The notes: generated from the letters alone by a model not told the origin. A stretch of DNA of 64,000 bases from Phycisphaerae bacterium (GCA_029260025.1 JAJDDZ010000192.1:1495-65494); one strand, 5' to 3'; positions 1 through 63,767 are shown, numbered from the stretch's first letter. Numbers and translations: made by a program.

Positions 1-350
1 ACCGCGCTATAAAGCAAAAAAGCCCCAAACAAGAGTCGAAGATAGGCCTCCCCGTCCCCAGCAAAAAATGGAGCCTCACTAAGCAAAACCCCGCCCACAA
101 CAGAAACACCAGCAATCGGAAGAAGCCGCCTCACACTCTGACCATCAATCGCCCCCGCACGAAAATGTTGATAAGCAGCCGGCGTCGTAACAAAAAAACC
201 GACCACCATCGAAGCAGCCTGATACTTGTGCTGGTCAGGCCCAAAAACCTCACTAAGCAAAGGGATCAAGACAATCCCCCCCCCAATCCCAAAAAGCCCA
301 CCCGCAGCCCCAACGAACAAACCAATACAAGCAAAAATCAGCGTATCCAT
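1..350 (-). CDS. TauE/SafE (DUF81)-family membrane permease, N-terminal part only (gene continues past window start)
   Basis: Own translation of the minus strand from ATG (350-348) gives MDTLIFACIGLFVGAAGGLFGIGGGIVLIPLLSEVFGPDQHKYQAASMVVGFFVTTPAAY... The glycine-rich first TM (GxGGG) is typical of TauE/SafE permeases. It is not in the ORF track because there is no stop inside the window. Confidence 0.55.
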   Translation of the reverse strand, partial: MDTLIFACIGLFVGAAGGLFGIGGGIVLIPLLSEVFGPDQHKYQAASMVVGFFVTTPAAYQHFRAGAIDGQSVRRLLPIAGVSVVGGVLLSEAPFFAGDGEAYLRLLFGAFLLYSA

Positions 351-374
351 CGTAAGTATCGTCGCGCCCAGCCG

Positions 375-3300
375 TCAGTGAGTCTCAAAATACGCCTGAA
401 GCGGCTTAACGTCCAAAGGAAGCGGCGCATTCCCGTCGTCATCCTTATTAAGCGCCCGAATCCCAGCAACAGCAGCCCGCGCACCCGCAAGCGTAGTAAT
501 CAAAGGAACCTTCCGTGCATTCGCCGCAGCCCGCCAACGACCTTCCGCCGAAGCAGGCCCGGTGCGAATCGGCGTATTGATCAGCAGATGAAGTGTCCCG
601 TCCTCAATCAAATCCTTCAAAAATGGCGCATCCAGCGCATCCGAAGACTTAGAAACAAGCTTCGCAGCGATCCCCGCCTCCGCCAAAACCTCCTGCGTCC
701 CGCTCGTTGAATAAATGACAAACCCAAGATCATACAAATCCCGAGCAATCGAAACAATCCGCAACTTATCTGGATCATTCACGCTAACCAGAGCATTCCC
801 CGAAGTCGGCAGGTCAAACCCAGTAGCAATCTGAGCCTTTGCAAGCGCCCGACCAAACGTCGGAGCAATCGCCATCACCTCGCCCGTACTCCGCATCTCC
901 GGACCAAGAATAACATCAACCCCCGGGAACTTATGAAAAGGAAAAACCGGCGCCTTAATCGCCGTATGACGAGGCCGAGGCGTTTCGCTCACCCCAAGTT
1001 CATCCAAAACGTCTTGCAGCGCCTCACCAAGCATGACCCGCGTAGCAACCCCAGCCCAGGGGACCCCCGTCGCCTTAGCAACAAACGGCAGCGTCCGAGA
1101 AGCACGAGGATTCACCTCGATCAGGTAAACTGTTCGATTGAGCACCGCATACTGAACGTTCATCGCCCCACAAACTCCAAGTCGCTTCGCCAGGCGTTTC
1201 GTAGACCGAAAAAGCTCCTCGACAACGACCCGACCAAGAGAAAACGGCGGCAATACCGTCGTACTGTCCCCGCTATGAACCCCAGCCTCTTCAATATGCT
1301 CCATAATCCCCGCAACCATACAGGTCGGCGCAGGAGCATCTTCATCGTCATTCAACCGACCAAAGTCCGCCACCGCATCAACATCAACCTCAATCGCATC
1401 AACCAGAAACTTATCAACAAGAATCGGGTTATCGCTAGCGCTCGCCAGTCGATCCGTCGCCCCAAACGCCTCATCAAGAAACGCGTTAAGATCGTCCGCG
1501 TTATTACAAATCTTCATTCCCCGCCCACCAAGCACATAGCTAGGACGAACGATCACCGGATACTCAACCCGATCAGCTATTGCAATCGCTTCCGTCCGAT
1601 TCCGAGCAATTCCGCTAGGTGGCTGAAGCAAGCTAAGATCGCGCAGCACCTTCTGAAACTCATCCCGATCCTCCGCCAGATGAATCATCTCCGGCTGCGT
1701 GCCAAGAATTGGCACCCCAGCGTCTTTGAGTCCCTGCGCAAGATTCAGCGGAGTTTGACCACCAAACTGAACAATCGCCCCCTTGATAAGTCCGCCCCCA
1801 TCCCTCAAAGGCCCGCCGTTAAGTCGCTCAACAATGTTAAGCACATCCTCATGTGTCAAAGGCTCAAAGAAAAGGTGATCACTCGTATCAAAGTCCGTAC
1901 TAACCGTCTCAGGATTAGAGTTAATCATCACAGCCTCGCGCCCGCTCGCCTTAGACGCAAACGCCGCATGACAGCAGCAATAATCAAACTCAATCCCCTG
2001 CCCAATCCGGTTAGGACCTCCCCCAAGGATGACCACTTTTTCCTTATCCGTGACCCGAATCTCATCATCAAAAGCGCGAATCCCATCGACCGTCGAAAAC
2101 GCCTCCTCGTGCGTCGAGTAGTAGTAGGGAGTGCTCGCCTCGAATTCCGCCGCACACGTATCAACAAGTTTATAACTAACTCGCGTCCCAAAAGACGCAG
2201 CCCGGGTCGCTACCGTCTCTTGCGAACAGCGTCCGCTCGAAGCAAGCTGCACGTTTGAATATCCCCGCCGTTTCGCCCCAGCAAGAAGCTCCCCGTCACA
2301 GTCCCCCGGCTCACCTTCAACAAGGTCATGCATCTGATCCAAAAACCAAGGATCAATCCGCGTCAGCTCATAAACTCCCTCAACGCTCCAACCCATCTTA
2401 AACGCATACCGAATGTAGTAAGGTCGCCCCTGGCAAGGACGAGCAAGTTTATCACGCAGCACATCACGCGGGATAGGCCAAGACTTCGCATGCTGCTCTT
2501 CGGTATCCGGCGGAGCTTCCGTAGACGTAACCCCACCAATCGGACCACTATCCGTCGAGGACGAACTTGCCTCTCCATTTGCCCGCGTCGCTTTCAACCA
2601 GGCATCGTTATCATCAAGCCCAAACCCATACCGCTGAATTTCCATCGACCGAATACATTTCTGAAACGCTTCCTTAAACGTCCGACCAATCGCCATCGCT
2701 TCGCCAACAGATTTCATCTGCGTCGTCAGCGTCTCATCAGAGTCGGGAAATTTCTCAAAAGTCCACCGAGGCATTTTCACCACGACGTAGTCAATCGTTG
2801 GCTCATAACAAGCGGGCGTGGTTTTGGTAATATCGTTCGGAAGCTCATCCAGCGTATACCCCACAGCGAGCTTCGCCGCGATCCGAGCAATCGGGTACCC
2901 CGTCGCTTTTCTAGCAAGCGCAGAAGACCGAGAAACCCGCGGGTTCATCTCGATCACAACCTGCCGACCTGTCTCCGGGCAAACCCCAAACTGAACGTTA
3001 CAACCACCCGTATCAACCCCGATCGCACGAATAATCGCAACAGCGCTATCCCGCATCTTCTGATATTCCTTATCAGAGAGCGTCTGCGCAGGCGCAACCG
3101 TAATAGAGTCCCCAGTATGCACCCCCATAGCGTCCACGTTCTCGATAGAGCAGATAATCACCACGTTATCCGCCCGATCCCGCATCAGCTCAAGCTCAAA
3201 CTCTTTCCACCCAAGCAAGCTTTCCTCGATCAGAATCTCGCTAACCCGAGAAGCAGCAAGCCCCCGCCCAACGATCGTATCGAATTCGGCTCGCGTCCGA

Positions 3301-3860
3301 CAGAACCCCCCGCCTTCCCCACCAAGCGTATAAGCAGGCCGGATGCAACAAGGCAATTGAATATCATCAAGAATCCCAGCCGCTTCCTCAAACGTATGCG
3401 CAATCGCCGACCGGGGCAGATCCATCCCGATGTCCAGCATCGTTTTCTTAAAAGCGGTCCGATCCTCAGCCTTATGGATCGCCTCCGGATTCGCCCCGAT
3501 CATCGTCACCCCATACCGCTCAAGAATCCCAGCCTCAGCGCATTCCATCGCACAGTTAAGACCCGTCTGCCCCCCAAGCGTCGGCAGAAGCGCATCGATA
3601 GGAAACCCCACCGCCTTTTCCCGCGCAAGAACCTTCTCAATAAATTCAGGCGTAATCGGCTCAACATAGGTAGCGTCAGCCGTCCCCGGATCCGTCATAA
3701 TCGTCGCGGGGTTAGAGTTGATCAGAGCAACGCGATACCCCTCCTCGCGAAGCGCCTTGCACGCCTGCGTACCCGAATAATCAAACTCAGCCCCCTGCCC
3801 AATAACAATAGGCCCAGAGCCAATAATCAGAATATTACGAATATCACTCCGCCTCGGCAC
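375..3860 (-). CDS. carB: carbamoyl-phosphate synthase large subunit
   Basis: 1161-aa ORF. It has duplicated ATP-grasp halves ([42 protein letters not shown]... and ...[24 protein letters not shown]...) and a C-terminal MGS-like domain. Confidence 0.97.
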
Positions 3861-3949
3861 GCGAGTGATGATAGCGGAACCAGCAGTAGGGCGGTAGGCC
3901 TTTCATGAAATCGCGCCGAGTAGTCAAAGCCCCAAGACCGCCAGATCCC

Positions 3950-4483
3950 TCAACTCTCAGGCACAACCCCACGGCGTGCCCTCAACGTCAAGCAACCCAC
4001 GGTCAAAAGCAACAGCGCCAACCCCACCAACCCCCACCCAGAGGCAGCCGGGACCGTAACCGCATTATCCCCAACGCAAATGGTCCCGTCCCCGGCATAA
4101 GAACCATTGAAAATATTCTGTGTGCACATCACCTCGGTCGTAACGACACACGTCGGCAAGGTATCCGCTCCGATGCAAGCCCCGCTTGGCAGATCGCAGC
4201 AGTTAGCAAACCCTTGTGAGGAGCAGCTGACCACGCCCATATCGACGTAGTCCACATCCCCGTCGCAGTCCACATCGCAGTCATTAACACAAGAGCTGCA
4301 GTCCCCCTCGGCACAATCCTTGGTCGTGAGCACGTCGGTGATACTATCCATCCCACCGCTGCCATCCGTATCAGTCACGCATGGACAAATGCCCGCACCC
4401 CAACTCATCGACGTACCAAATCCAAAAACCGAAATCCCAGCCAACAGGAACAATGAGCGAATGCCCAAGAAAGAAATTCTCAT
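3950..4483 (-). CDS. Cys-rich secreted protein with PEP-CTERM-like C-terminal anchor
   Basis: Lies inside ORF 3950..4558. I moved the start to ATG 4483, which has a GGAGG about 7 nt upstream and gives the signal peptide MRISFLGIRSLFLLAGISVFGFG. There are about 14 Cys and an acidic DCDVDCDGDVDYVD (Ca-binding/dockerin-like) motif. The C-terminus is VPAASGWGLVGLALLLLTVGCLTLRARRG. Confidence 0.6.
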   Translation of the reverse strand: MRISFLGIRSLFLLAGISVFGFGTSMSWGAGICPCVTDTDGSGGMDSITDVLTTKDCAEGDCSSCVNDCDVDCDGDVDYVDMGVVSCSSQGFANCCDLPSGACIGADTLPTCVVTTEVMCTQNIFNGSYAGDGTICVGDNAVTVPAASGWGLVGLALLLLTVGCLTLRARRGVVPES

Positions 4484-4890
4484 CGTCGACCCTCCAAACC
4501 GTGAAGCGATTCTCAGCAGAAATGGACAACGGATACGTTCCGATGCCGCAACGCCCACCCTAACCCATCCCCAACCAAAAAGTCAAGGAAAAAATTCCCT
4601 ACTTCCCGACAATACCTTTCGCGGCGGGTGCAATGCTCGTGTGGCCATGTCGGACGACAGAAAACGCCCCCACGACCCCCAATCAGGCCTCATTTTCTCG
4701 CATGAAACCCACACCCCATCGGAATGCAAGACTTGTTTGACTAGCAGCTCAAACCGGGGCAAATAATCCTTGGAACTGCATGATCGTTTTGCTACCATAG
4801 TCCGCTGTTGGACCGCACACCATCGTGGGAATTTCCGCCGAGCAAATTCGTACGGAAGAAACTCACCGCCAACATCAGAGGAGAGATACT

Positions 4891-5514
4891 ATGTCAACTA
4901 GAGCATCGCATCGCCTTGTGCCAGTTTTGGCGACAGTGGTACTGATTTCCGCCGCCGCTCCCGTCCAAGCATCATTCCATTTCTGGGCCTTCACGGAGAT
5001 TTTCTCAAACGACGACGGCTCCGTCCAATTCGTCGAGCTATTCACCGAAAGTGTGGGGCAACAGTTCGCAAACGGACAAACTTTCCAAGTAACCCAAGGC
5101 GCGAGCACAAACAGCTACATCTTCCCCGCAAACACGCCCGCACCAACAAATGCCCATCACCTACTACTCGCAACAGCAGGATTCGCCGCCATCCCCGGCG
5201 CACCAACCCCCGACTTCATCATCCCCGACGGATTCCTCTTCGCCCCCAACGGAACCCTCACCGGATTAGGCTTAGTAACACCACCCGTCGCCTACGCAAA
5301 CATCCCAACCGACGGCATCCTCTCCCTGGACGCCGACGGAACCACAACCGCCCCGAATTCACCAACAAACTACAACGGAGACACCGCATCCATCGACGTC
5401 TCGCCACAACCGTCGGTCCCGACAACAAGCACATGGGGAAGCATAGCCCTAGTCCTGTCGATCTGCATCGCATCCGCAATCTTGATCCGCCAGCGACGAA
5501 TAGCCTCAGCCTAG
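4891..5514 (+). CDS. secreted protein, lamin-tail-domain-like N-terminal region, PEP-CTERM-like C-terminal anchor
   Basis: Lies inside ORF 4825..5514. ATG 4891 is preceded by GAGGAGAG. The signal peptide is MSTRASHRLVPVLATVVLISAAAPVQA. FTEIFSNDDGSVQFVELFT resembles the LTD core. The C-terminus is VPTTSTWGSIALVLSICIASAILIRQRRI. Confidence 0.6.
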   Translation: MSTRASHRLVPVLATVVLISAAAPVQASFHFWAFTEIFSNDDGSVQFVELFTESVGQQFANGQTFQVTQGASTNSYIFPANTPAPTNAHHLLLATAGFAAIPGAPTPDFIIPDGFLFAPNGTLTGLGLVTPPVAYANIPTDGILSLDADGTTTAPNSPTNYNGDTASIDVSPQPSVPTTSTWGSIALVLSICIASAILIRQRRIASA

Positions 5515-5541
5515 CATCCTGTTGAAAAACGAAGTTTTTCA

Positions 5542-5616
5542 GTGTGGCACCGGTTTGTAACCGGTGCTGGGGGCTGAGGCACGGGAAAATGCACCAGTTG
5601 GAAACAGGTGCCACAT
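5542..5616. repeat. REP/REPIN-like inverted doublet of a 26-nt palindromic element
   Basis: gtgtggcaccggtttgtaaccggtgc (5542-5567) is itself a 9-bp-stem hairpin (gcaccggtt/aaccggtgc). A degenerate inverted copy, gcaccagttggaaacaggtgccacat, lies at 5591-5616. An identical 26-mer recurs at 57651-57676. Confidence 0.7.
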
Positions 5617-5639
5617 TTTTTCAGCAGCCGGCTAGCCCG

Positions 5640-6125
5640 CAAAAAAAACCAGCGACCACGCAACCGCGATGAGGCGACGTTCCCCGCCGTCCGCCCATCC
5701 TATTTCTTCATTCCCACATTGCGAATCCTCATTCTGCGTCCCTAGCCACGCGCGCTACTAAGAAATCCCCTTAACCGATCACGCGCCAAGTTATGAATAG
5801 GGTCCGCTGTTCGGACCACTGGGCTTTGGCTCCTCTGTTCGGACCAGGGGATTACAAAGGCACGCACGCGAGCAAACGAGAAAAGGAAATGAAATTCCAA
5901 CAAAGAACCCACCATCGCGGCCCCGACCCATCCAAAAAAAACCAGAATGTCCCCAACCCCCTTCAAAACATAAAACCTACAAACAAACCCATTATCTCCC
6001 CTTGCAACCCCAAATCGCCGATTCGCATGCAAACGAACCCATTGTCAAACCCATTCAAGACCACCTACCTGCGATCCCCGCTCGCCGATGCCCCCGCAGT
6101 CGTTGAGTATTCTGAATTCGCTACT
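5640..6125 (+). repeat. diverged noncoding paralogous block (partner 57790-58165)
   Basis: Colinear shared blocks include aaccagcgaccacgcaaccgcgat vs aaccagcgccaacgcgaagcgcaat. taagaaatccccttaaccgatcac is 24/24 identical (5759-5782 vs 57945-57968), followed by +caagttat. Also acaaacaaacccatt (5979-5993 vs 58056-58070), caaatcgccgat vs caatcgacgat, and ctgaattcgc vs cagaattcgc. The reading frame is not conserved between the copies. Confidence 0.65.
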
Positions 6126-6230
6126 TGGAATTTCTCCCCCCCCTCTTTTACCGGACGATCGCACCTCGCTATTTTCCCGCGCCCATTCTGCCGATCCCCA
6201 GTAATAGGCTACCATCAGGAGGAGTCTGCG

Positions 6231-6731
6231 ATCCGCAGCATAGTCCGAAAACTTGCGTTCTCGATGATCGAGCTAGTCATTGTTGTCGTCATTATTGGCA
6301 CCATTGCAGCGATAGCCATCCCGCGCCTAAGTCGCGCCGCAGAAGGAACAGACGAAGCTTCCCTAAAAGCAAGCCTGAAAGCCCTCAGAGGTGCAATCGA
6401 CATGTTCGCCGCAGAACACACCGATCAGTGGCCAGCCCAAGACAAGATCGCTGCCACCTTCGTCGCCCAACTGACAACCAAGACAGACATCGCCGGAGTC
6501 GCAGGGACCACCCCCGGCATACACGTCTATGGCCCCTACCTAAGAAGCATGCCCCCAGTAACCGTAGGCCCAAACAACGGGACGACGGGTGTTGGATTCG
6601 ACGAAAAAGGAAACGTCAAGATGGGAGGCGGGGACAAACTCAACGGCTGGATTTACAACTTCAAGACAGGACAAATCTACGCAAACTCAGACCAGATAGA
6701 CGAAGACGGAAAGGCCTACAAGGACTACTAA
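6231..6731 (+). CDS. type IV pilin / pseudopilin-like protein with prepilin N-terminal methylation motif (start codon uncertain, possibly ATC 6231)
   Basis: The 3' part of ORF 5793..6731 contains ...RKLAFSMIELVIVVVIIGTIAAIAIPRLSRAAEG, i.e. the class III signal pattern with A at -1, F at +1 and E at +5. AGGAGG at 6217-6222 sits 8 nt before ATC 6231. The only in-frame ATG (6264) lies inside the motif. Confidence 0.6.
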   Translation: MRSIVRKLAFSMIELVIVVVIIGTIAAIAIPRLSRAAEGTDEASLKASLKALRGAIDMFAAEHTDQWPAQDKIAATFVAQLTTKTDIAGVAGTTPGIHVYGPYLRSMPPVTVGPNNGTTGVGFDEKGNVKMGGGDKLNGWIYNFKTGQIYANSDQIDEDGKAYKDY

Positions 6732-7330
6732 AACGTATCCCGAAGAACAACCCGATCAAACGAAAGCTGCCCAGAACGCTCCCGCGCAGGCTTCAGCGCC
6801 TTACCAACCGTAACCATCATCCCGATCACATGATTCTCAGGAAGCTTAATAAGTTCCCCGACCTTCCCCGGGTCAAAACCGATCATCGGACAAGAGTCAT
6901 AACCCATCGCTTTCGCCGCGAGCATAATGGTCTGCGCCGCGATCCCAGCAGAACGCATCGCCTCATCGCGTTTCAGTTGTTCGTTACCTTCATAAAAACC
7001 ACCCATCATCCCAACCATCGCCTTAGCAGTTTCCGCAGGTGCGTCTTTCCAATAAGACTCAGGCTCCTGCTTAAAGGAATCGAGGTTAGCAGTAATGATG
7101 ACAAGGATCGATGCCTCAGAAATTTGCGCTTGATTGTAAGAAGCACCCCGAAGCTCCTGGCGAAGCGCCGGATCAGTCACAACAACAAAACGCCAGTTCT
7201 GCATATTGAAAGACGTAGGACTAAGAAGAGCCGCCGTCATCAAGCGAGTAATTTCGTCCTCGCTGAAAGAGTGACCTGGGTCGTAGTGCTTCACCGACCG
7301 CCGCGATTCAATGGCTGTAAACGTATCCAT
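6728..7330 (-). CDS. NAD(P)H nitroreductase family protein
   Basis: MDTFTAIESRRSVKHYDPGHSFSEDEITRLMTAALLSPTSFNMQNWRFVVVTD... is the classic nitroreductase N-terminal signature (RRSxR/K..., SxxNxQxW). Confidence 0.85.
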   Translation of the reverse strand: MDTFTAIESRRSVKHYDPGHSFSEDEITRLMTAALLSPTSFNMQNWRFVVVTDPALRQELRGASYNQAQISEASILVIITANLDSFKQEPESYWKDAPAETAKAMVGMMGGFYEGNEQLKRDEAMRSAGIAAQTIMLAAKAMGYDSCPMIGFDPGKVGELIKLPENHVIGMMVTVGKALKPARERSGQLSFDRVVLRDTF

Positions 7331-9847: not shown

Positions 9848-11527
9848 TTACTTTTGTATCAACCGGCGGCGAGGCTGCCCGCCGTTGTGGTTTCTCGCGA
9901 TCGTGACGTCAAAAAAATCCTTCAACTCCGCTTCTTTGCAGTCTTCTCGAAAGTGGACCCCGATAGAATGGTCGCGCTGTCGCGCCGAGACCGCAACGGT
10001 CCACGCGACGGTTAGTTCGTTCTGCAGTTCCCATCCGTCGCGCGTGTCGAAGGTCTTGTCGAGAACATAGTGTCCCCAAAAACCTAGGATTTCGCACGTC
10101 TCGCGAAGACGACTCTCGCTTCGTACGATTCCGGCGTTGCGCCACATGACACTCGTAAGCGAGTTACGAATGTCAGCGACGTCAAGCGGCGTGCGCGCAG
10201 ACGGATCAATCTCGCTAACCACAGTCGAGACCCGCGACTTGCCATTGCGAGCGCCGATGGCATGCCCGGCGCTTTCGCCGGCCAGTCGCCCAAAGACTAG
10301 CCCCTCTAAGAGCGAGTTGCTCGCCATTCTGTTCGCGCCGTGGACGCCGGTACACGACGCCTCGCCGCAACAGATGAGTCCCTCGATGCTCGTCGTTCCG
10401 TCGAGTCCTACGTCAACGCCGCCAATCATATAATGAGCGCTCGGGCGGACCGGGATCAAGTCCTTCTTCGGGTCGATCTGAAAATCCGTGCAAAGTCGAG
10501 CCAGTCCTGGAAAACGCTTCGCAAAGTTATCCAGGTGCCTCGTATCGAGAAAGACAGAGTTCGAGCGCGTCTCGATCAGGTGATTGTGGATTGCGCGACT
10601 AACGATATCACGCGGCGCAAGTTCGCCGTCTTTGTGATGGTCAAAGAGGAATCGCTTGCCATCTCGGTCGAGCAGATACGCGCCTTCGCCCCGGACAGCT
10701 TCAGATACTAAAGCGCGACCTGCCCCTGCGATGTACAGGGTCGTTGGATGAAACTGCATGAGTTCCATGTTGCAAAGTCTCGCTCCTGCACGGAAGGCGG
10801 CGGCGATTCCGTCGCCGGTTGATCCGGGCGGGTTGGTCGTTTCTCGCCATATTTGGCCGCATCCGCCGGAAGCGAGGATCGTTCGGTGTGCCCAGATGAG
10901 TTGGTGGCCATGCTTAGGGTGATGAGAGATCGCGCCGATGCAAGTGTCGCCTTCTGTTACAAAATCGATCAAGAAGCAGTGTTCAAAGACCCGGATGTTG
11001 TCTTGTCTATCGACGCGCTCGCGAAGCGTTCGGACGAGTTCCCGGCCAGTTTGATCGCCTTGTGCGTGGACGATTCGGTTTACGGAGTGTCCCCCCTCGC
11101 GGGTTCGAGCAAGAGATGTTCCGTCGCGATCGAGCTGAATTCCCCAGTCGATCAATTCTTCGACCCGAGAGGGCCCGTCGTCAACCAGTTTGTGAACGAC
11201 GTCGGGGCGGTTTACGCCAGCCCCGGCGCGGAGGGTGTCGTCAAAATGTCTTTGTGCGTCGGTGTCTTTGTCGCATGCTGCAGCGATCCCGCCTTGCGCA
11301 TATCGGGTCGCGGATTGTCCGAATTCGTCCTTGCAGAGAAGGATGACCTCGCCGAACAAAGCAGCTTCGATGGCGGCCCGCATTCCGGCGACGCCACTTC
11401 CGATAACAAGTACGTCGGTGAGGACGTGGCTGATCCGACGCGAATCGAAGTTCGTGAGGTATCGCTGTGTGTCGAGAGTCGCCTGCATGATGGTGATTAT
11501 CGTACGCTTGGGTGGGTTGCTCGGCAA
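9848..11527 (-). CDS. nadB: L-aspartate oxidase
   Basis: FAD-binding DVLVIGSGVAGMRAAIEA, YAQGGIAAA, and a succinate DH/fumarate reductase flavoprotein-like body of NadB length. The start is uncertain (TTG 11527 or ATG 11488). Confidence 0.9.
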   Translation of the reverse strand: MPSNPPKRTIITIMQATLDTQRYLTNFDSRRISHVLTDVLVIGSGVAGMRAAIEAALFGEVILLCKDEFGQSATRYAQGGIAAACDKDTDAQRHFDDTLRAGAGVNRPDVVHKLVDDGPSRVEELIDWGIQLDRDGTSLARTREGGHSVNRIVHAQGDQTGRELVRTLRERVDRQDNIRVFEHCFLIDFVTEGDTCIGAISHHPKHGHQLIWAHRTILASGGCGQIWRETTNPPGSTGDGIAAAFRAGARLCNMELMQFHPTTLYIAGAGRALVSEAVRGEGAYLLDRDGKRFLFDHHKDGELAPRDIVSRAIHNHLIETRSNSVFLDTRHLDNFAKRFPGLARLCTDFQIDPKKDLIPVRPSAHYMIGGVDVGLDGTTSIEGLICCGEASCTGVHGANRMASNSLLEGLVFGRLAGESAGHAIGARNGKSRVSTVVSEIDPSARTPLDVADIRNSLTSVMWRNAGIVRSESRLRETCEILGFWGHYVLDKTFDTRDGWELQNELTVAWTVAVSARQRDHSIGVHFREDCKEAELKDFFDVTIARNHNGGQPRRRLIQK

Positions 11528-19704: not shown

Positions 19705-19900
19705 ATCTCTCTGCGAGGAGCCGGGGGAGGGAGCCGACGCTGGTTGACGACCAGGTCCCATGCAATGCGTGGTTCAGGCAACGGGTCAGACTGGAGACAG
19801 AGCAGCCCACTTGTTTCATTCAGGTGCCGTGGATCACCTGGTCGTCAACGAGCGCCGGCGGTATCCGGGGTGAATTTCGCGCCCGCTATTGTGGCGCTTG
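19705..19900 (+). ncRNA. ffs: signal recognition particle RNA (ends approximate)
   Basis: A 19-bp helix with one mismatch forms between 19738-19756 (cgctggttgacgaccaggt) and 19836-19854 (acctggtcgtcaacgagcg). Its apical part contains GUCAGACUGGAGACAGAGCAGCC (19785-19807) and GGUGCCGUGGAU. These resemble the 4.5S domain IV sequences GUCAGGUCCGGAAGGAAGCAGCC and GUGCCGGGAU. It sits immediately upstream of dnaX-ybaB-recR, as scr does in Bacillus subtilis. Confidence 0.65.
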
Positions 19901-56256: not shown

Positions 56257-57579
56257 ATGAGCTTCGAGAACCTCACCCCACCAACAAACGGTACACCAAT
56301 CACCATGCAAGGTGACGTCCTCAACGTCCCAGACAACCCCATCCTTCCGTTCATCGAGGGCGACGGCATCGGCCGAGACATCTGGAAAGCTGCCGTCCGT
56401 GTTTTCGACGCAGCAATCAACAAAGCATACCAAGGCAAAAAGAAAGTTGCATGGTTCGAGGTCTTTGCCGGTCAAAAATCATACGACAAGTACGGAACAT
56501 GGCTCCCCGAAGACACCGTCGAAGCTTTCCGAACATTCCTGGTCGGCATCAAAGGCCCCCTCACAACCCCCATCGGTTCCGCCGCAGGCACCTCCGTCAT
56601 GCGATCCCTAAACGTCGCCCTAAGGCAAAAGTTAGACCTCTACACCTGCCTAAGACCAGTCCAATACTTCAATGGCGTTCCATCCCCGGTCAAGCGCCCC
56701 GAACTCATCGACATGGCCATCTTCCGCGAAAACACAGAAGACATCTACGCAGGAATCGAATGGCAGGAGGGCACCCCCGAAGTCAAAAAAGTCATCGCCT
56801 TCCTGCAAGATACAATGGGCGTAAAGAACATCCGCTTCCCAGAGACCAGCGGCATCGGCGTCAAACCAGTCTCGAAAGAAGGCAGCGAGCGCCTAATCAG
56901 AGCAGCCATCAACTACGCCATCATCAACAAGCGAAAGAGCGTCACCCTTGTCCACAAGGGCAACATCATGAAGTTCACCGAAGGCGCTTTCCGCGACTGG
57001 GGTTATGCATTAGCAGATCGCGAGTTCGCTGATAAAACCTACACGTGGTCCCGGTGGGAAAAAACAAAAGCAGAAAAAGGCGAAGAAGCAGCCAACACCG
57101 AACAAGAAAACGAGCTAGCCTCCGGCAAGATCCTGGTCAAAGACGCCATCGCCGATATTGCCCTCCAACAAGTCCTAACCCGCCCAAGAGAGTTCGACGT
57201 AATCGCCACCCTCAACTTGAACGGCGACTACCTTAGCGACGCCCTCGCAGCCCAGGTAGGCGGCATCGGCATCGCCCCCGGCGGCAACATCAACTACAAG
57301 ACCGGTCACGCCATCTTCGAAGCAACCCACGGCACAGCCCCCAAGTACGCCGACCAGGACAAGGTAAACCCCGGCAGCGTCATCCTCTCCGGCGAGATGA
57401 TGTTCCGCCACCTGGGCTGGACCGAAGTAGCCGACCTAATCAACAAAGGCCTAAACGGAGCAATCGCCGCCAAGACAGTAACCTACGACTTCGAACGCCT
57501 AATGAGAAGCGAAGGCACAGAAGCCAAACTCCTAAAATGCTCCGAATTCGGCGACGCAATCATCGAACACATGGGGTAA
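56257..57579 (+). CDS. icd: NADP-dependent isocitrate dehydrogenase
   Basis: [58 protein letters not shown], and [12 protein letters not shown]. Confidence 0.95.
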
Positions 57580-57595
57580 TCGAACACATGGGGTA
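57562..57595 (+). repeat. perfect 17-bp tandem duplication spanning the icd stop codon
   Basis: atcgaacacatggggta occurs at 57562-57578 and again at 57579-57595. The TAA stop (57577-57579) is formed across the junction. The second copy ends in ...gggtag. Confidence 0.9.
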
Positions 57596-57612
57596 GGCAA
57601 ATAAAACGAGAC

Positions 57613-57646
57613 GGCGACACCACAACGACACCGCCGTGGTGTCGCC
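57613..57646 (+). terminator. strong hairpin downstream of icd (possible terminator, no U-tract)
   Basis: ggcgacaccac (57613-57623) pairs with gtggtgtcgcc (57636-57646) in an 11-bp perfect stem with a 12-nt loop. Confidence 0.4.
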
Positions 57647-57650
57647 TCTT

Positions 57651-58165
57651 GTGTGGCACCGGTTTGTAACCGGTGCAATTAAGCCGAGTAGGCCAAGCAA
57701 ACCATAGGGCGGGCACTTCCCGCCGCATGCGCTATCAACCCTCAAGTCCGTAGCCTCCACCGTGCGGACCACCAAGATCAGAGCAGCGACCGTAAGGGAG
57801 CTAGACGGCGAAACCAGCGCCAACGCGAAGCGCAATCGCCCCGGACACCATCTTCAAGTAGGGCACGGTGGTTCTTCCGCCTCAAAGCGGAAGGTTCACC
57901 TGCCGTCCGGAACGCCATTTCCCGCCTCTAAAGCGCTGATCGCTTAAGAAATCCCCTTAACCGATCACCCGTCAAGTTATTACCGTAGGAACCGCGCGTA
58001 AGGTCCGCGCCTTGGAGTCAAAAGAAATAGATGAGCACACCAAACAACAAAACTGACAAACAAACCCATTTTTCCCACCTCACGCACTCCAATCGACGAT
58101 CCCCCTCAAAACAAACCCATCAAAAAGCCATTTCCAACCCATTTCAACAACAGAATTCGCCAAGA
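57651..58165 (+). repeat. second copy of the REP-led noncoding paralogous module (partner 5542-6125)
   Basis: The identical 26-mer gtgtggcaccggtttgtaaccggtgc lies at 57651-57676. The shared blocks at 57945-57980 and 58051-58165 appear in the same order and orientation as at 5542-6125. The module fills a 620-bp ORF-free gap between convergent icd and the glycosylase gene. Confidence 0.65.
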
Positions 58166-58199
58166 AATCGCGCAAAAACCCCTCCCGGTCAGCCCGCAT

Positions 58200-59162
58200 C
58201 TACTCCTGCTCTGCCACAAGCCCCCGCGCCGTATCCCAGGTCAACCAATTCTCCAACCAGCAAGCCTTGTTCTTCCACTTCCCATACTTCGCATAGATCC
58301 GCTCGATCTTCTTCGCCGTCGGTTTCTTCCCGCGCGTATGAAACTTTGCAACGTGCGCATAAGTCGCACTATCAATCGCAAGTCGATCATGTCGCCCCAA
58401 AAAACCAATCAGATAATTCGCACTCGTCGGCCCAATCCCATCAATCTCCCGAAACATCTTCACCAGATCCTCGCTCGATACATCCGGATCATTCGCAAGA
58501 GTCTTCAACGAGTCAGGGTCGAATCGTTTCGATGCAACGTCATCACAAAACTTCAAAACCGAATCGCATCGATATCCAAGGCGACAAACATCACTCAGAT
58601 ATTTCTTCCCACCCTTCAGAATCTCACGAGGAGTAGGCCACGCCGACATGTTCCGAAAGTGCGTCAGGTTAGGTCCAAGCTGACACATCCGGTTAATCAT
58701 CTTCACCGCCTGTGTCCAGTTCACGTTCGTAGAGCAGAGCGCCTTGAGAATATTCTCCGTCATCGACGCAGAACGAATCATCCGACCCGCCCCGATACTA
58801 GGAACGACCGACAACACATCATCCCCGTCACACATCACATAAAACTCAGACAAGTCCAAGTCCAGACCAAGGGTAAATCGCAACCGAGTAACGATCCCAT
58901 CAAGAACGTCATCTTCAATCAACGTCCCGTTGCGAACATCGGTATCAACCGAAACGTCCAAAGTCTTTTTCGCCCGCGATCGCGTCGACGCTTCGGTCAC
59001 ACAAACACGAAACACCCGATCGCGATCCCGTTCGATCAACTGAAAACAAGACCCCCCTTCGGACCAGCTCATAGGCGCACACTCATGCCACCCATGACTA
59101 AGAACGGTAGCCTTCAAAGAGAACTCCCCCGGCGCTTGTATTTTCCGTTTTCGTTGAATCAT
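58200..59162 (-). CDS. HhH-GPD superfamily DNA glycosylase (AlkA/Ogg-like)
   Basis: HhH-GPD segment LVKMFREIDGIGPTSANYLIGFLGRHDRLAIDSA (helix-hairpin-helix plus catalytic Asp) and an N-terminal AlkA_N-like domain. Confidence 0.75.
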   Translation of the reverse strand: MIQRKRKIQAPGEFSLKATVLSHGWHECAPMSWSEGGSCFQLIERDRDRVFRVCVTEASTRSRAKKTLDVSVDTDVRNGTLIEDDVLDGIVTRLRFTLGLDLDLSEFYVMCDGDDVLSVVPSIGAGRMIRSASMTENILKALCSTNVNWTQAVKMINRMCQLGPNLTHFRNMSAWPTPREILKGGKKYLSDVCRLGYRCDSVLKFCDDVASKRFDPDSLKTLANDPDVSSEDLVKMFREIDGIGPTSANYLIGFLGRHDRLAIDSATYAHVAKFHTRGKKPTAKKIERIYAKYGKWKNKACWLENWLTWDTARGLVAEQE

Positions 59163-59451
59163 AATCCCATCTTTACCGAGTCTTTCTCAAATCGCTACCG
59201 CTTTCTGGCACCGCGCAATTCGAAGCCGTCACGACACGACTATCCGACCGCGCCACGCCCGGGTCAAACACCTAGAATCCGACCTTTTTCCCAAGAACGG
59301 AGGGCCAAGCCTGAACATTTCGCCTCATTTTTACGCTGAGTTATCGGACGCCTTTGACCAAACGGCGTTTTTCTGATGGCCCTGTGATTCAGGTTGTTAC
59401 AATCGACGTAAGTACCGAAACCCCCGTAACTTGTGCCTGATTTCGACTATA

Positions 59452-59503
59452 CCACAATATGTAGATGATTTTCGTTGACGATGCCCGATAGGTGGTGTAG
59501 AAT
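59452..59503 (+). promoter_or_regulatory. candidate nrdJ promoter with two NrdR-box-like sites
   Basis: TTGACG (59475-59480), a 17-nt spacer, then TAGAAT (59498-59503). ccacaatatgtagatg (59452-59467) matches 11/16 of the remembered NrdR consensus acaCwAtATaTwGtgt. gcccgataggtggtgt (59483-59498) matches 10/16. The two sites start 31 bp apart. Confidence 0.4.
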
Positions 59504-59542
59504 TGAGTTTGCCGCGATAGAGTTGAGTCGAGGGCAAGAATG

Positions 59543-59564
59543 ACCCGGCGTAAGCCGGGTTTTT
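59543..59564 (+). terminator. terminator-like hairpin inside the nrdJ 5' leader (possible attenuator)
   Basis: acccggc-gtaa-gccgggt forms a 7-bp stem with a GNRA loop, followed by ttttt. It lies about 40 nt after the candidate -10 and about 150 nt before the nrdJ start. Confidence 0.45.
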
Positions 59565-59714
59565 GGTCTGCGGATCACTTCGGGTCGGCTATTAGGCAAG
59601 TGGGACGAAGCTGGTAGTGCGTCAGAAGAGGACGCAGAATCTAGTGGTTCTTGGGATCATTTTCATTAGGCATTTCAATCCGGTGCGTGGTCGCCGGTGG
59701 AGGCGTATAGGCTT

Positions 59715-62318
59715 ATGGCAGAAGCGTTGGTAGAAAGCCAGAGCTTGGGTGCTAAGGAAGGCACACGGAAGTCGCACTTGGGTCTTTCGCAGAATGCGGA
59801 GCGAGTCCTTCGAGCGCGATACTTAAAAAAGGACGAGCAGGGCAACTGCACTGAGTCGTCGACGGACCTCTTTCGCCGCGTCGCCAAGGCAGTGGCTGAG
59901 GCGGAGACCCGTTACGACAAGGACCCTGAGGTCCGAAGTCGATGGGAAGAGCGATTCTATTCGCGAATGGTCTCTCGCCAGTTCATGCCCAACAGTCCGA
60001 CCTTAATGAACGCCGGTCGAGAAATGGGTATGCTTAGCGCGTGCTTTGTCCTCCCCGTCCGAGACTCGATCAACGAAATCTTTGATTCTATCAAGCATAC
60101 CGCGCTCATTCAAAAGGCGGGTGGCGGAACCGGTTTCGCGTTTGATGAACTGCGGCCAACGGGTGACTATATCAACAGCTCTGGCGGAACGACCAGCGGA
60201 CCAATTTCCTTCTGGCGTGCGTTCAGTGAAGCGACCAACGCGATTCAGCAGGGTGCGTTCCGTCGCGGTGCGAACATGGGGATGATGTACGTTAGTCACC
60301 CCGATATTCTCAAATTCCTGCACGCCAAGCAGGATCTCGATCAATTCACCAACTACAACATCTCGATCAAGATGACTGATGAGTGGATGAAGGGGTTCAT
60401 GGCCGAGCCCAATCATATTCACGTCGTCAAGAATCCGCGGACGAATCGCACTTATGCACTCCCCAAGAACCTCAAGATTTGGGAGTACGATCTGAGATCG
60501 CTTATCGAGATTAAGTCTGGCGAGCCGGACCCGGTCGGCGAGTTCTATACCCGCCAAGATATCTGGGACATCATCGTCAACAACGCCCACGCCACTGGCG
60601 AGCCAGGCGTTATCTTTATTGACCGGATCAACCAGCACAATCCCACGCCGCACATCGGGCGGATGGAAGCGACCAACCCCTGCGGCGAGCAGCCACTATT
60701 GCCCTACGAAGCATGCAATCTTGGCAGCATCAATCTCGAGCGATTCCTCACTGAAAACGAGCAGGGGGCGTGCGACGTCGATTGGGATTCGCTGCGTGAA
60801 GCGATCCACGATTCGACTCGTTTTCTAGACAATATCATCGACGTGAACCGTTATCCGCTGCCAGAAATCACGGAAATGTGCACGAACAATCGCAAGATTG
60901 GTCTCGGAGTGATGGGCTTTGCGGACGCGCTCTACCGTCTTGGCGTTGCTTACAATAGTGACGAAGGCGTGAAGTGGGGCGAGCGATTCATGAAGTTCCT
61001 CGACGACGAGTCGCACGATTACAGCGAGAAGCTCGCCAAAGAGCGAGGATGCTTCCCGAACTGGAAGGGGAGTACGTGGGACACGAAACACAATCGTCCA
61101 ATGCGCAACGCAACGTGCACTACCGTGGCACCCACAGGGACGATCAGCATCATCTCTGGATGTTCCGGTGGGATTGAACCTATGTTCAGCCTCGCCTTCT
61201 TCCGCAACGTCCTCAAAGGGCAGTCGGAAGGGCAGACGCCGATGGTGGAGATCAACCCCATATTCGAAGCTGTTGCGAAGCGCGCAGGTCTCTTAAGCGA
61301 GGGTTTGATGGAGCGGATTGCCACGGAGGGCACCCTCGCTCATATGTCCGAGATTCCGGACGATGTGAAAGAGGTCTTTGTTTGCGCCCACGACATCAAT
61401 CCCAAGCAACATATGCTGATGCAGGCTGCTTTCCAGAAGCACTGCGACGCTTCAATTTCCAAGACGATCAATTTCCCCGAGACCGCAACGGTTCAAGATG
61501 TCGACTCCATTTACAAGATGGCCTTCGAGCTAGATTGCAAGGGCGTAACGGTTTACCGAAACGGCTGTCGTCAGCATCAGCCAATGGCACTCAAAGACAG
61601 TGGCAAAAACCCCGAGGTTATCGAGGCAAAGGAAGTCGAGACCAAGAAAGAATACAAACCGCTCGAACCGGCGGTCCTGCCTGAGATTACAAGTGGGATT
61701 CGCGTTCGCCAGCTAACACCGTTTGGAAATATGCACATCAACATCACTGTTGATCCTGCGACCGGTCGTGCGATGGAAGTCTTCGCGCAACTGGGAAAAG
61801 GCGGCGATCTTGCCAACAGCGACCTGGAAGCGATCTGCCGAATGATCAGCTTGTGGTTGCGATCTGGCGGAAGTTTGCAGCATGTCATCAATCAATTGCA
61901 GTCCATCGGGTCCAGCCTCCAGGTCCACACCAAAGACGGCAAAATTATGAGCTTGGGCGACGGGATCGCCCGAGGTTTGCGGCGATTCATGCGAGCTAAG
62001 CAGGACAAGGGCCTCGTAGGTCTTCTGATCGGCGATGATGCGATGGAAACGCTCAATCGGCAGAGCCCCGATTCCGACGGCAAGAGTACCGGAAATGGAA
62101 ATGGAAATGGAAACGGCCACGGAACCAGGCCGAACGGGGCTGACTCAGCCACAGCGACTTTGAAAAGAACGGCAAATGCGGTCCCTTCACGCATGGAGTC
62201 CCAAGGAATTCAGTGGCAGCAGACGCAATACAAGGTAGTTTGCCCAGATTGCCAATCTGGGCTTCGTTTTAGTGAAGGCTGCGTAACTTGCGACTCCTGC
62301 GGGTTTTCGAAGTGCTAA
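59715..62318 (+). CDS. nrdJ: adenosylcobalamin-dependent (class II) ribonucleoside reductase
   Basis: LSQNAERVLRARYLKKDEQGN..., FMPNSPTLMNAG, ATNPCGEQPLLPYEACNLGSINL, SISKTINFP, and CKGVTVYRNG. Start taken at ATG 59715 (GGAGG 11 nt upstream); the track ORF begins at GTG 59697. The C-terminus has a GNGNGNGNGHG linker and the zinc ribbon CPDCQSGLRFSEGCVTCDSCG. Confidence 0.93.
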   Translation: MAEALVESQSLGAKEGTRKSHLGLSQNAERVLRARYLKKDEQGNCTESSTDLFRRVAKAVAEAETRYDKDPEVRSRWEERFYSRMVSRQFMPNSPTLMNAGREMGMLSACFVLPVRDSINEIFDSIKHTALIQKAGGGTGFAFDELRPTGDYINSSGGTTSGPISFWRAFSEATNAIQQGAFRRGANMGMMYVSHPDILKFLHAKQDLDQFTNYNISIKMTDEWMKGFMAEPNHIHVVKNPRTNRTYALPKNLKIWEYDLRSLIEIKSGEPDPVGEFYTRQDIWDIIVNNAHATGEPGVIFIDRINQHNPTPHIGRMEATNPCGEQPLLPYEACNLGSINLERFLTENEQGACDVDWDSLREAIHDSTRFLDNIIDVNRYPLPEITEMCTNNRKIGLGVMGFADALYRLGVAYNSDEGVKWGERFMKFLDDESHDYSEKLAKERGCFPNWKGSTWDTKHNRPMRNATCTTVAPTGTISIISGCSGGIEPMFSLAFFRNVLKGQSEGQTPMVEINPIFEAVAKRAGLLSEGLMERIATEGTLAHMSEIPDDVKEVFVCAHDINPKQHMLMQAAFQKHCDASISKTINFPETATVQDVDSIYKMAFELDCKGVTVYRNGCRQHQPMALKDSGKNPEVIEAKEVETKKEYKPLEPAVLPEITSGIRVRQLTPFGNMHINITVDPATGRAMEVFAQLGKGGDLANSDLEAICRMISLWLRSGGSLQHVINQLQSIGSSLQVHTKDGKIMSLGDGIARGLRRFMRAKQDKGLVGLLIGDDAMETLNRQSPDSDGKSTGNGNGNGNGHGTRPNGADSATATLKRTANAVPSRMESQGIQWQQTQYKVVCPDCQSGLRFSEGCVTCDSCGFSKC

Positions 62319-62538
62319 CAAATGTTTCAGTCCGGTAAAAAACGCATTTTTTAGGCGACTTTTTTCACCTGAGGGGTACAATTATCATGGGTGGACCAAA
62401 GTTCGCCCATGTTTGGAGCCGATATTCTTGTGAGGCGGGCTGGCGAGCTGCCGATTGGCACTATTGCTTTTCGCCTTTGACAACTGAATTCATAAGAGGG
62501 AACGATACTGAGAATTACCATGGCTTCTTTCCCCTCCG

Positions 62539-62580
62539 GAAAGCACCGTTTCGCCTTCGGGTGAGCGGTGCTTTCTTTAT
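62539..62580 (+). terminator. hairpin plus T-rich tail downstream of nrdJ
   Basis: gaaagcaccg (62539-62548) pairs with cggtgctttc (62566-62575) in a 10-bp perfect stem. The inner cgcc-ttcg-ggtg extends it, and tttat follows. Confidence 0.5.
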
Positions 62581-62622
62581 GCCTACCGCCGAATTCTTCG
62601 ACTTAGCCGCCAAGCTGCCCGC

Positions 62623-62650
62623 TTGTCAGAATCCGACCCTCCGCTATACT
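62623..62650 (+). promoter_or_regulatory. candidate sigma70-type promoter for rpsP-trmD-rplS
   Basis: TTGTCA (62623-62628), a 16-nt spacer, then TATACT (62645-62650), about 70 nt upstream of the rpsP ATG. Confidence 0.4.
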
Positions 62651-62718
62651 TGCTGGGCTCAGGATGAGCGTTGTGAAGTCCTCTTGCTAGTGGCTGAGGA
62701 CATGAATTGGAGAGATAG

Positions 62719-62970
62719 ATGGCTGTCCGGATCAGATTGAAACGAATTGGACGCAGGCACCGCCCGGCGTATCGCCTTACAGCGGTCGATAGTCGCAAAG
62801 CTCGCGACAGTAAGGTGATCGAAGAGCTTGGGTGGTTCGATCCACTCAAACCCCAAGATGACCAACAGGTCGAGCTCAAGAAGGAGCGTATCGAATATTG
62901 GTTGAGCGTCGGCGCTCAGCCAAGCGACACGGTCCGTGCTCTTTTGAAAAAGCAGAGCGTCGGCGTTTAG
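62719..62970 (+). CDS. rpsP: 30S ribosomal protein S16
   Basis: MAVRIRLKRIGRRHRPAYRLTAVDSRKARDSKVIEELGWFDPL. Confidence 0.97.
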   Translation: MAVRIRLKRIGRRHRPAYRLTAVDSRKARDSKVIEELGWFDPLKPQDDQQVELKKERIEYWLSVGAQPSDTVRALLKKQSVGV

Positions 62971-63000
62971 TCGCGCCGCACGGTTTGTGCGCGGTACTAC

Positions 63001-63711
63001 ATGCGGATCAACATCCTGACATTGTTTCCGGAGTTGTTCGGTCCGTTTTTCTCGACGAGTATCGTCGGGCGTGCAGTTGCAGCTGGTCTTGTTTCACTGC
63101 GTTGCATGAACTTCCGCGAATTTGCAACAGACGCTCATCGCAGCGTCGATGACCGACCGTTTGGCGGCGGTCCTGGGATGGTCTTAATGTGTCCACCGAT
63201 TGTGGATGCGTTAGAAGATCTTGAGTCTGGCGAAAAAGAAGAACCGGTTCGCATTCTGCTAACACCGCAGGGCGAACCGTTTACACAAGAAATCGCAGCC
63301 GAGCTTTCCAGTGAACCTTGGCTGACTTTGATTTGCGGGCATTACGAAGGTTTTGACGATCGAATTCGGTCGGTCAAAAAGGTCCGCGAGATTTCGATCG
63401 GCGACTTTGTGTTATCTGGCGGCGAACCCGCCGCGATCGTCTTGGTTGATTCGGTGGTGCGACTGCTACCGGGTGCGCTGGGACATAAAGAGTCTGCCTT
63501 GGACGAGTCGTTTGCGGATGGCACGCTGGAGTATCCGCAATACACCAGACCGCGCGAGTATCGCGGGTTAGAGGTCCCCGAGGTTTTGCTCTCGGGCGAC
63601 CACGGTCGAATCGCCGCGTGGCGTTTGGAGCAATCGCTTCTTCGCACGGCGCAGCGAAGACCGGATTTGTTAGACCGACTCGCCTCGGGCGGTCGGGAAC
63701 GGAAACAGTAG
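63001..63711 (+). CDS. trmD: tRNA (guanine37-N1)-methyltransferase
   Basis: MRINILTLFPELF..., DDRPFGGGPGMVL, CGHYEGFDDR, and SIGDFVLSGGE. Confidence 0.95.
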   Translation: MRINILTLFPELFGPFFSTSIVGRAVAAGLVSLRCMNFREFATDAHRSVDDRPFGGGPGMVLMCPPIVDALEDLESGEKEEPVRILLTPQGEPFTQEIAAELSSEPWLTLICGHYEGFDDRIRSVKKVREISIGDFVLSGGEPAAIVLVDSVVRLLPGALGHKESALDESFADGTLEYPQYTRPREYRGLEVPEVLLSGDHGRIAAWRLEQSLLRTAQRRPDLLDRLASGGRERKQ

Positions 63712-63767
63712 GGTACGCCGTCTCGATAGTTTCGGGCGGCTTTGGATACGCAGGAGCTAACGCACCG

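Follow-up and report, generated by a model that had tools for sequence, protein, structure and literature searches.

Bacterial interspersed mosaic elements (BIMEs) of Escherichia coli and other enterobacteria are extragenic, non-coding assemblies of repetitive extragenic palindromes (REPs) and other motifs in a fixed order; they measure 40-300 nt and are present in hundreds of copies. The BOX elements of Streptococcus pneumoniae and the Correia elements of Neisseria are likewise modular, lineage-specific intergenic repeats, of ~100-350 nt and more than 100 copies, whose parts are variably present and which can carry regulatory signals affecting neighbouring genes. A REPIN consists of two inverted REPs separated by a short spacer and forming a long hairpin, and is mobilised by RAYT transposases (Bertels and Rainey 2011, PMC3116915; PMC3337134). 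Here we analyse a 64,000-nt stretch of DNA from a Phycisphaerae bacterium (GCA_029260025.1, JAJDDZ010000192.1:1495-65494; hereafter the window, with positions counted from its first nucleotide), in which two intergenic gaps, one upstream of a gene for a pilin-like protein (copy 1) and the other between icd and a convergent gene (copy 2), contain the same non-coding module. The explanation that we favour, with about even confidence, is that these modules belong to a small, lineage-restricted family of composite non-coding intergenic repeats resembling BIME and BOX elements, with three full copies and one partial copy.

A first-pass annotation, made from the sequence of the window, described the two gaps as diverged paralogs carrying the same ordered blocks on the same strand, and this description is borne out: every block that it listed was found, on the plus strand and colinear in both gaps (Table 1), and such colinear exact blocks are absent from shuffled sequences. 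The REP of 26 nt with which each module begins is identical in the two copies (26/26), and at up to 3 mismatches it has only these two matches in the window and none in shuffles. The block AACCAGCG[A/C]C[C/A]ACGC, for which the earlier notation was one letter off, is shared at 13 of 15 positions. In the core, an exact 24-mer (TAAGAAATCCCCTTAACCGATCAC, 24/24) with its extension amounts to 34 identical positions out of 36, again with no match in shuffles, and the 24-mer has no third match in the window at up to 3 mismatches. The repeat search of the window also recovered a CA block (5964-5993 vs 58041-58070, 25/30), and the small blocks AAAC[G/A]AACCCAT, AACCCATT(T)CAA and C[T/A]GAATTCGC are all present. 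The last of these, CTGAATTCGC in Table 1, is short and could be a chance match; C.GAATTCGC occurs three times in the window, and two of these three occurrences are at module ends.

Between the blocks the similarity is low and interrupted by indels, as had been noted: these intervals score near the shuffled level, and the core-to-tail distances of the two copies differ by 109 nt. Global alignment, with its cheap gaps, gave 72% identity even for shuffled sequence, and segment-wise local scores were used instead. Relative to shuffles, the local alignment of copies 1 and 2 yielded z = 2.8 from REP to core, z = 0.1 from core to tail and z = 12.2 for the C/A-rich tails, which are similar in all pairs of copies (z = 12-34). 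Tail identity between copies 1 and 2 is about 70%, against 34/36 in the core. The core is therefore conserved far above the tail, and the tail far above the filler; the module is real, and it is non-coding.

The two window modules are not the only ones. A third full copy and a fourth, partial copy were found in the Phycisphaerae metagenome-assembled genome (MAG) OFTM250 (GCA_029260075.1), about 20 kb of which was examined as loci L002 and L015, both from JAJDDY010000075. The full copy (L002 3360-4400, ~1,040 nt) is flanked by two minus-strand genes, one QueE-like and the other encoding a 618-aa protein, and has the block order of the window copies, the succession of REP, (block B), core, 'hp' palindrome and tail being identical in 3/3 full copies. 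With copy 1 it has in common a 135-nt unit that is opened by a small hairpin and continues through the REP, the inverted REP and a T-run (5518-5651 vs L002 3360-3493, 92% identity). With copy 2 it shares block B, the pre-core and the core, including an exact run of 55 nt, and its tail is 80% identical to that of copy 2. Upstream of its core there is a sequence, AACCAGTGCGACCGC, that resembles the short shared block of copy 1, and the 'hp' palindrome of copy 1 recurs 3' of its core (L002 4097-4116) and, in the related locus L007, next to a REP. From this arrangement of parts, the OFTM250 copy has the look of the full-length module, from which copies 1 and 2 would derive by different deletions. 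The partial copy, a core cassette of ~73 nt, lies in the next gap downstream of the OFTM250 full copy, where it ends at, and overlaps, the start codon of a gene for a sigma-70-family protein of 556 aa. It aligns with the pre-core and core of the modules with a score of 21, compared with 10.2 +/- 1.3 (maximum 17) for shuffles.

Beyond these loci the searches were mostly empty. A scan for the exact core in the GTDB representative genomes (one per species) gave one true match, that in OFTM250, and one chance match; the same scan gave three chance matches in an unrelated AT-rich repeat in the JGI metagenomes and none in IMG/VR. Searching with an nhmmer profile of core and tail detected no further full copy in the related loci (~90 kb), and blastn of a full-length copy against plasmids and phages returned no match. 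Tetranucleotide usage in L015 correlates with that of parts of the window at 0.92-0.96, which equals the correlation of the window parts among themselves, and strand skew is unusually strong in both; the window and OFTM250 may be one genome.

The core cassette has the form of a 12-7-12 dyad, TGATCNNTTAAN-N7-NTTAANNGATCA, followed by CAAGTT. The full dyad is present in three of the four copies (copy 2, the OFTM250 full copy and the sigma-gene copy); in copy 1 the spacer and the right arm are kept perfectly and the left arm is absent. By reading of the alignment, the differences between the arms of the sigma-gene copy and those of the module dyad are mostly non-compensatory, which fits protein binding better than a hairpin, and the core is probably a protein-binding site. 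No sigma-70-type promoter (-35 and -10 hexamers 16-18 nt apart) was found in either window copy, and in the best hand-fit, TTAACC-N15-TATKAN, the hexamers are wrongly spaced. The sigma-factor gene is preceded by two REPs and a promoter-like TTGACC-17-GATAAT (L015 13614-13642). This site, ~280 nt upstream of the gene, is a better promoter candidate than the cassette, so that the cassette there more likely belongs to the 5' untranslated region (UTR) than to a promoter.

Several other assignments of these segments were tried and rejected. For a sigma-54 promoter in the REP, the spacing after TGGCAC is wrong and the -12 element would coincide with the variable hairpin loop; for a promoter of the extracytoplasmic function (ECF) type, GAAAT-N17-CGTC, the sole variable positions of the core fall inside the would-be -10 element; and a CtrA-like TTAA-N7-TTAAC box has a spacing of N9 here. 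The consensus sequences of integron attC, the IHF site, the DnaA box and iterons are unmatched, and the IHF consensus WATCAANNNNTTR is, by reading, unmatched in the tail.

The tails are marked by both repeated units and composition. All five AACCCATT octamers of the 64 kb, counted on both strands, are inside the two window tails. Each tail contains three AACCCAT(T) units, and the first two AAACRAACCCAT units are spaced by 50 nt in copy 1, 51 nt in copy 2 and 50 nt in the OFTM250 copy. The earlier remark that the plus strand of both copies is C/A-rich and G-poor is correct: G makes up 7-9% of the tails, the lowest 150-nt stretches of the 64 kb, and the C/G ratio over 160-196 nt is 3.4 in copy 1, 3.9 in copy 2 and 3.2 in the OFTM250 copy. 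In centroid folds of the three copies the tail is predicted to be unpaired. Rho utilization (rut) regions are stretches of at least ~80 nt of C-rich, G-poor, unstructured RNA, and the tails, as judged from composition and predicted folds only, are of this kind. The surrounding kilobases are also C- and A-rich on the plus strand, irrespective of gene orientation, so that part of the tail composition would be background. The tails nevertheless remain a compositional extreme and have retained their blocks while the adjoining filler was replaced.

Strand asymmetry is a property of the window at large, where it is arranged in blocks independent of gene orientation. The GC skew of the plus strand is about -0.25 at 1-7300, +0.1 at 7300-31500, -0.1 to -0.4 at 31500-59200 and ~0 at 59200-64000, and both modules are located 1-1.5 kb inside strongly C-rich blocks, near a switch in the sign of the skew. 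The same genes in the related loci L006-L008 have almost no skew, and in OFTM250 the segment of L015 at 8-20.5 kb is skewed as strongly as the window. Changes specific to the icd lineage of the window are directed toward A and C (mostly C>A, G>A, G>C and T>C).

That the module is non-coding follows from its reading frames. The shared blocks had been said to fall in different frames, and the translations indeed place them in three frames in three copies, with a 1-nt indel between tail units; with the frames differing between copies and a unit spacing of 50/51/50 nt, conservation is at the nucleotide and not the protein level. A phmmer search with the open reading frame (ORF) of the copy 2 tail against 1.84 billion proteins gave one weak match (E = 7.5e-4, 22% identity), judged not meaningful. 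A small minus-strand ORF between block B and the core was considered and dismissed, as it is not conserved between copy 2 and L002. The description of the copy 1 gap as ORF-free stands as far as coding is concerned and fails in the literal sense: a frame is open from 5793 to 6731, and the public model of the pilin-like gene, P0241 (280 aa), starts at an ATG at 5889. The homologues of this protein have 155-170 aa and their initiator Met aligns at ~6228-6231, so that the upstream part of P0241 is an over-extension, made possible by the scarcity of stop codons in G- and T-poor sequence. The copy 1 gap is thus probably annotated as coding although it is non-coding, and the module causes a mis-annotation in which the public model runs ~115 codons too far, into the tail. 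None of ATG, GTG and TTG is present in the pilin-like gene at the start position of its homologues (window 6216-6270). What aligns with their Met is an ATC at 6231, 7 nt beyond an AGGAGG at 6218-6223; either translation begins at a non-canonical codon or the assembly has a wrong base here.

The REP was listed as a part of the module; it belongs to a separate, older, clade-wide family found at gene ends, and the segments peculiar to the module are the core with its dyad and the tail. The REP has a 9-bp stem, GCACCGGTT/AACCGGTGC, and its copies differ only in the loop (TGT, TCT or TTT). Units with GTGTGGCACCGG occur in intergenic gaps of L002, L006, L007 and L008, and in L007, where the gap 3' of icd is only 110 nt (11324-11433), a single GTGTGGCACCGG-containing hairpin occupies the same position as in the window; the REP of copy 2 is probably ancestral at the icd site. 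In copy 1 and OFTM250 the REP is doubled, with arms of 25 nt that are 84% complementary and 23 nt apart (5543-5567/5591-5615 and L002 3385-3409/3433-3457), and the doublet is followed by T6 (L002 unit 3384-3457). From its sequence, REP doublet plus T6 is a predicted terminator-type hairpin of the upstream gene. The gaps of this clade contain further families of short palindromes, namely GGTCCGCTGTKCGGACC adjoining REPs and GCCGGGTCATCGACCCGGC-like units in L007 and L008.

At the same genes in relatives the module is missing. It was not found at the icd site in relatives with 88% and 94% identity of the icd protein, in which the neighbours are retained: beyond the short gap of L007, the gap of L008 (4378-5241) holds an unrelated ORF of 287 aa without Pfam match. 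For L006 the contig stops exactly at icd, possibly because the assembly was broken by a repeat there. The gap 3' of QueE in L010, a locus from the same sample as L008, is unrelated sequence, and the ~500-nt gaps upstream of the pilin-like homologues (62-68% identity) show no similarity to the module. Four-fold degenerate sites are 43-53% identical between the window and L008; neutral DNA would therefore be unrecognisable between the two, whereas a conserved core would be recognisable, and it is absent. By these comparisons the module is one that arose or arrived after the split from the icd and QueE relatives, at unrelated sites. Of the full copies, two (copy 2 and that of OFTM250) point at the 3' end of a convergent gene, and the module is not tied to one kind of neighbouring gene. 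Copy 2 lies between the stop codon (58200) of the convergent gene and the terminator (57613-57646) of the same gene, which is strongest on the minus strand (57646-57613 followed by a U-run), and its tail ends ~20 nt from that stop codon.

The interval separating icd from the convergent gene is a turnover hot spot, with 110 nt in L007, an ORF in L008 and a module-containing 620 nt in the window (57580-58199). A perfect 17-nt tandem duplication (ATCGAACACATGGGGTA x2, 57562-57595) spans the icd stop codon; it has changed the stop from TAG, as in L008, to TAA and left the protein unchanged, and could be due to replication slippage or be the footprint of an excised insertion. Elsewhere in the window there are a direct repeat of 36 nt, 75% identical and with a spacing of 51 nt, at 62904/62955 (62904-62990) and an inverted repeat of 24 nt, 92% complementary and with arms 79 nt apart, at 19733/19836 (19733-19859).

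Table 1 Positions of the module copies, their parts and adjoining features (window coordinates unless a locus is named)
Feature	Position	Strand	Remark
Copy 1	5542-6130	+	gap upstream of pilin-like gene
Small perfect hairpin TGAAAAAC-GAA-GTTTTTCA	5523-5541	+	immediately 3' of the stop codon of a 229-aa gene
REPIN-like doublet, copy 1	5542-5622	+	REP 26-mer 5542-5567, inverted arm 5591-5615, then TTTTTT
Short shared block AACCAGCGACCACGC	5647-5661	+	13/15 with 57812-57826
Copy 1 core TAAGAAATCCCCTTAACCGATCAC-G-CG-C-CAAGTTAT	5759-5794	+	right half of dyad only
Two tandem 'hp' palindromes GGTCCGCTGTTCGGACC	5800-5846	+	
Copy 1 tail, C/A-rich, G-poor, unstructured (predicted)	5850-6075	+	conserved blocks 5964-6058
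AACCCATT in copy 1 tail	5986, 6036, 6048	+	
CTGAATTCGC, final block common to copies 1 and 2	6112-6121 (= 58151-58160)	+	
Pilin-like (prepilin-type) gene	6231-6731	+	downstream of copy 1, outside the repeat; true start ~6228-6231
Bidirectional terminator hairpin 3' of icd	57613-57646	both	minus strand: 15-bp stem then GUCUCGUUUU
Copy 2	57651-58190	+	gap between icd and convergent gene 58200-59162
Copy 2 REP 26-mer	57651-57676	+	singlet
Block B AGAGCAGCGACCGTAAGGGAGCTAGA	57780-57805	+	26/26 with OFTM250 copy; absent in copy 1
Short shared block AACCAGCGCCAACGC	57812-57826	+	counterpart of 5647-5661
Copy 2 pre-core and core	57921-57980	+	core 57945-57980
Copy 2 dyad 12-7-12 TGATCGCTTAAG-AAATCCC-CTTAACCGATCA	57937-57967	+	
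Copy 2 tail, C/A-rich, G-poor, unstructured (predicted)	58005-58180	+	conserved blocks 58041-58147
AACCCATT in copy 2 tail	58063, 58136	+	
Fourth, partial copy (core cassette)	L015 13866-13939 (= L002 1024-1097)	module + orientation	abuts annotated ATG of sigma-70-family gene
Other palindrome families	L007 7606-7657; L008 5243-5285; window 5800-5846		

As a composite repeat, the module would comprise four parts: a REP or REPIN hairpin of terminator type, taken from the older family at gene ends; a filler that is unalignable between copies and contains other short palindromes; the near-invariant core of 36 nt, with its dyad in 3/4 copies; and a C/A-rich, G-poor, presumably unstructured tail of 110-200 nt with three phased AACCCAT(T) units. 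Within the lineage the module would have been copied to new intergenic sites, by recombination or some transposition step; since relatives lack it at these sites, some means of spread must have existed. The core would persist through being recognised as DNA by a protein, in the manner of an operator. If the tail is transcribed rightward, the product would be a long, unstructured, C-rich RNA of the textbook rut make-up, and transcription would be terminated short of the neighbouring genes: in copy 2 and the OFTM250 copy ahead of antisense reading of the convergent gene, and in copy 1 ahead of the pilin-like gene. Several points weigh against this scheme. Only three to four copies are known, possibly all from one genome, and the family is poorly sampled. 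No terminal repeats, target duplication or transposase were found. Dependence on Rho is purely inferred, there is no promoter consensus in or near the core and hence no sign that the tail is transcribed from within the module, and part of the tail composition may reflect mutational bias instead of function. Finally, a simple dimer-operator model does not predict the missing left arm in copy 1, and short-tract gene conversion could give the same core pattern without any binding protein.

Among the rival explanations, those based on RNA had been raised already by the first-pass annotation, which suggested a family of small RNAs (sRNAs) or 5' leaders. A structured sRNA family finds no support: the window has no Rfam match at the gathering score, permissive thresholds applied to both gaps and L002 returned only noise (E >= 0.9), a tRNA and tmRNA scan gave nothing useful, and a literature search on small RNAs in Phycisphaerae yielded nothing relevant. 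The folding z-scores from core to tail are about 0 (+0.15, +0.80 and -1.17 in the three copies), and the alifold consensus (-2.6 kcal/mol) contains only the dyad and the 'hp' palindrome, three sequences being too few for a fair covariation test. Core and tail could instead form an independent non-coding RNA gene family, in which the core is the promoter or operator and the transcript a long, C-rich, unstructured RNA that acts by pairing of CCUC/CCCAU with G-rich ribosome-binding sites, or as a sponge for an RNA-binding protein like CrcZ or the C-rich staphylococcal sRNAs. The invariant 36-nt segment is promoter-sized and similarity between copies falls right after CAAGTTAT; a related cassette is located at the 5' end of a real gene, that of the sigma factor; two copies have no co-oriented downstream gene, so that a stand-alone transcript would be the simplest product; and the tail, with its AACCCAT(T) units in every copy, is free of large indels next to a filler that has been replaced. 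However, the core lacks a sigma-70-type promoter match and varies only at the two positions of the would-be ECF-type -10 (CGTC), no plus-strand terminator is present at the end of the tail, stable or conserved structure and Rfam relatives are missing, and at the sigma-factor gene the better promoter-like site would leave the cassette in the 5' UTR. We consider such an RNA gene rather unlikely. A role as 5' leader or translation enhancer for the pilin-like gene would be in line with the fact that G-poor, CA-rich, unstructured leaders such as the omega sequence of tobacco mosaic virus enhance translation, with the position of copy 1 directly upstream of this gene and co-oriented with it, and with the strong AGGAGG of a gene that has no canonical start codon. 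The other two full copies, both facing a convergent gene, have no co-oriented gene downstream, and the upstream regions of the pilin-like homologues are unrelated to the module; as a general explanation the leader is largely refuted and, in our judgement, highly improbable.

The remaining alternatives concern the origin of the copies. A segment duplicated two or three times and now decaying neutrally, with blocks homogenised by short-tract gene conversion or surviving by chance, would account for the low copy number, for the deletion-derivative look of the copies (copy 1 keeps the REPIN and hp, and copy 2 block B and the pre-core) and for a tail composition that follows the local strand bias. 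It is hard to reconcile with a core at 34/36 against a tail at ~70% (binomial p ~3e-4), with the recurrence of the core at a fourth site with different flanks, and with a unit spacing of 50-51 nt kept in all copies while the flanking filler was completely replaced, and we hold neutral decay to be distinctly unlikely. The third suggestion of the first-pass annotation, a non-autonomous mobile element, did not hold for a classical transposon, since no inverted repeat joins the ends of any copy and no flanking bases are duplicated. The absence of terminal inverted repeats and target-site duplications is normal, on the other hand, for elements that travel as single-stranded DNA with the help of a Y1/HUH transposase (RAYT or IS200/IS605 type) supplied in trans, and here the REPIN would be the left end. 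Such a movement agrees with the REP doublet, forming a long hairpin, at the beginning of copy 1 and the OFTM250 copy, with the three copies being oriented alike with respect to the local strand skew, which insertion into a single replication strand would produce, and with the missing module at the same sites in relatives. Yet neither a hairpin nor a conserved end marks the right boundary, the REP of copy 2 is a singlet and apparently ancestral to its site, and in the gap of the sigma-factor gene the core is inverted relative to the REPs. Moreover, no transposase is known in the sequence examined and the genome scan found a single exact core in OFTM250. We regard this origin as very unlikely.

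To our knowledge, hardly any work exists on repeat families or regulatory RNAs in Phycisphaerae or in other Planctomycetota. A bolder extension of the composite-repeat explanation, and a distinctly improbable one, would make the core cassette a portable regulatory unit read by one DNA-binding protein, located at the start of the sigma-70-family gene and, at two or three other sites, driving long, unstructured, C-rich RNAs with phased AACCCAU repeats. If so, RNAs carried by repeats would make up a small and hitherto unseen regulon in Phycisphaerae, serving for example as a sponge for an RNA-binding protein, and a core binding site shared with a sigma-factor gene would provide a first handle on a regulator in an uncultured lineage. 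Otherwise, the module simply joins the lineage-specific intergenic repeats already known and is of purely local interest. The finding is real but modest.

Compared with the known systems, the composite repeat described here has the properties of several without matching any one of them. Like BIMEs, it is extragenic and non-coding, combines a REP with other motifs in a fixed order and is located between convergent or co-oriented genes. Some BIME motifs are binding sites of proteins (IHF and gyrase), a role that is only predicted for the module core. Unlike BIMEs, it is present in 3-4 copies of ~0.5-1 kb, and BIMEs have no counterpart of the C/A-rich tail and no sequence similarity to the module. 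The 26-mer is a short extragenic palindrome that in copy 1 and the OFTM250 copy forms an inverted doublet with a 23-nt spacer, as in REPINs; the REPIN, however, extends over no more than the initial 80-135 nt of the module, REPINs have no equivalent of the core and tail, and no RAYT gene was seen in the 64 kb of the source and the ~20 kb of OFTM250. In its modular architecture, with parts that come and go between copies, the module resembles BOX and Correia elements, from which it differs in copy number and length; the terminal inverted repeats and TA target duplication of Correia elements were not found in it. With CrcZ/CrcY of Pseudomonas and the RsaE/RoxS-type sRNAs of Firmicutes, the hypothetical tail RNA would share a G-poor make-up and a repeated short single-stranded motif. 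It differs from them in having no similarity of sequence or structure, no Rfam match and no promoter or terminator identified in the module, and one of the three tails lacks the A-rich Hfq/Crc motif AANAANAA. The likeness to rut regions lies in tails with C/G of 3.2-3.9 over 160-200 nt and no predicted stable structure, placed before a neighbouring gene; whereas rut sites are defined by composition, the tails are additionally distinguished by conserved blocks and phased repeats.

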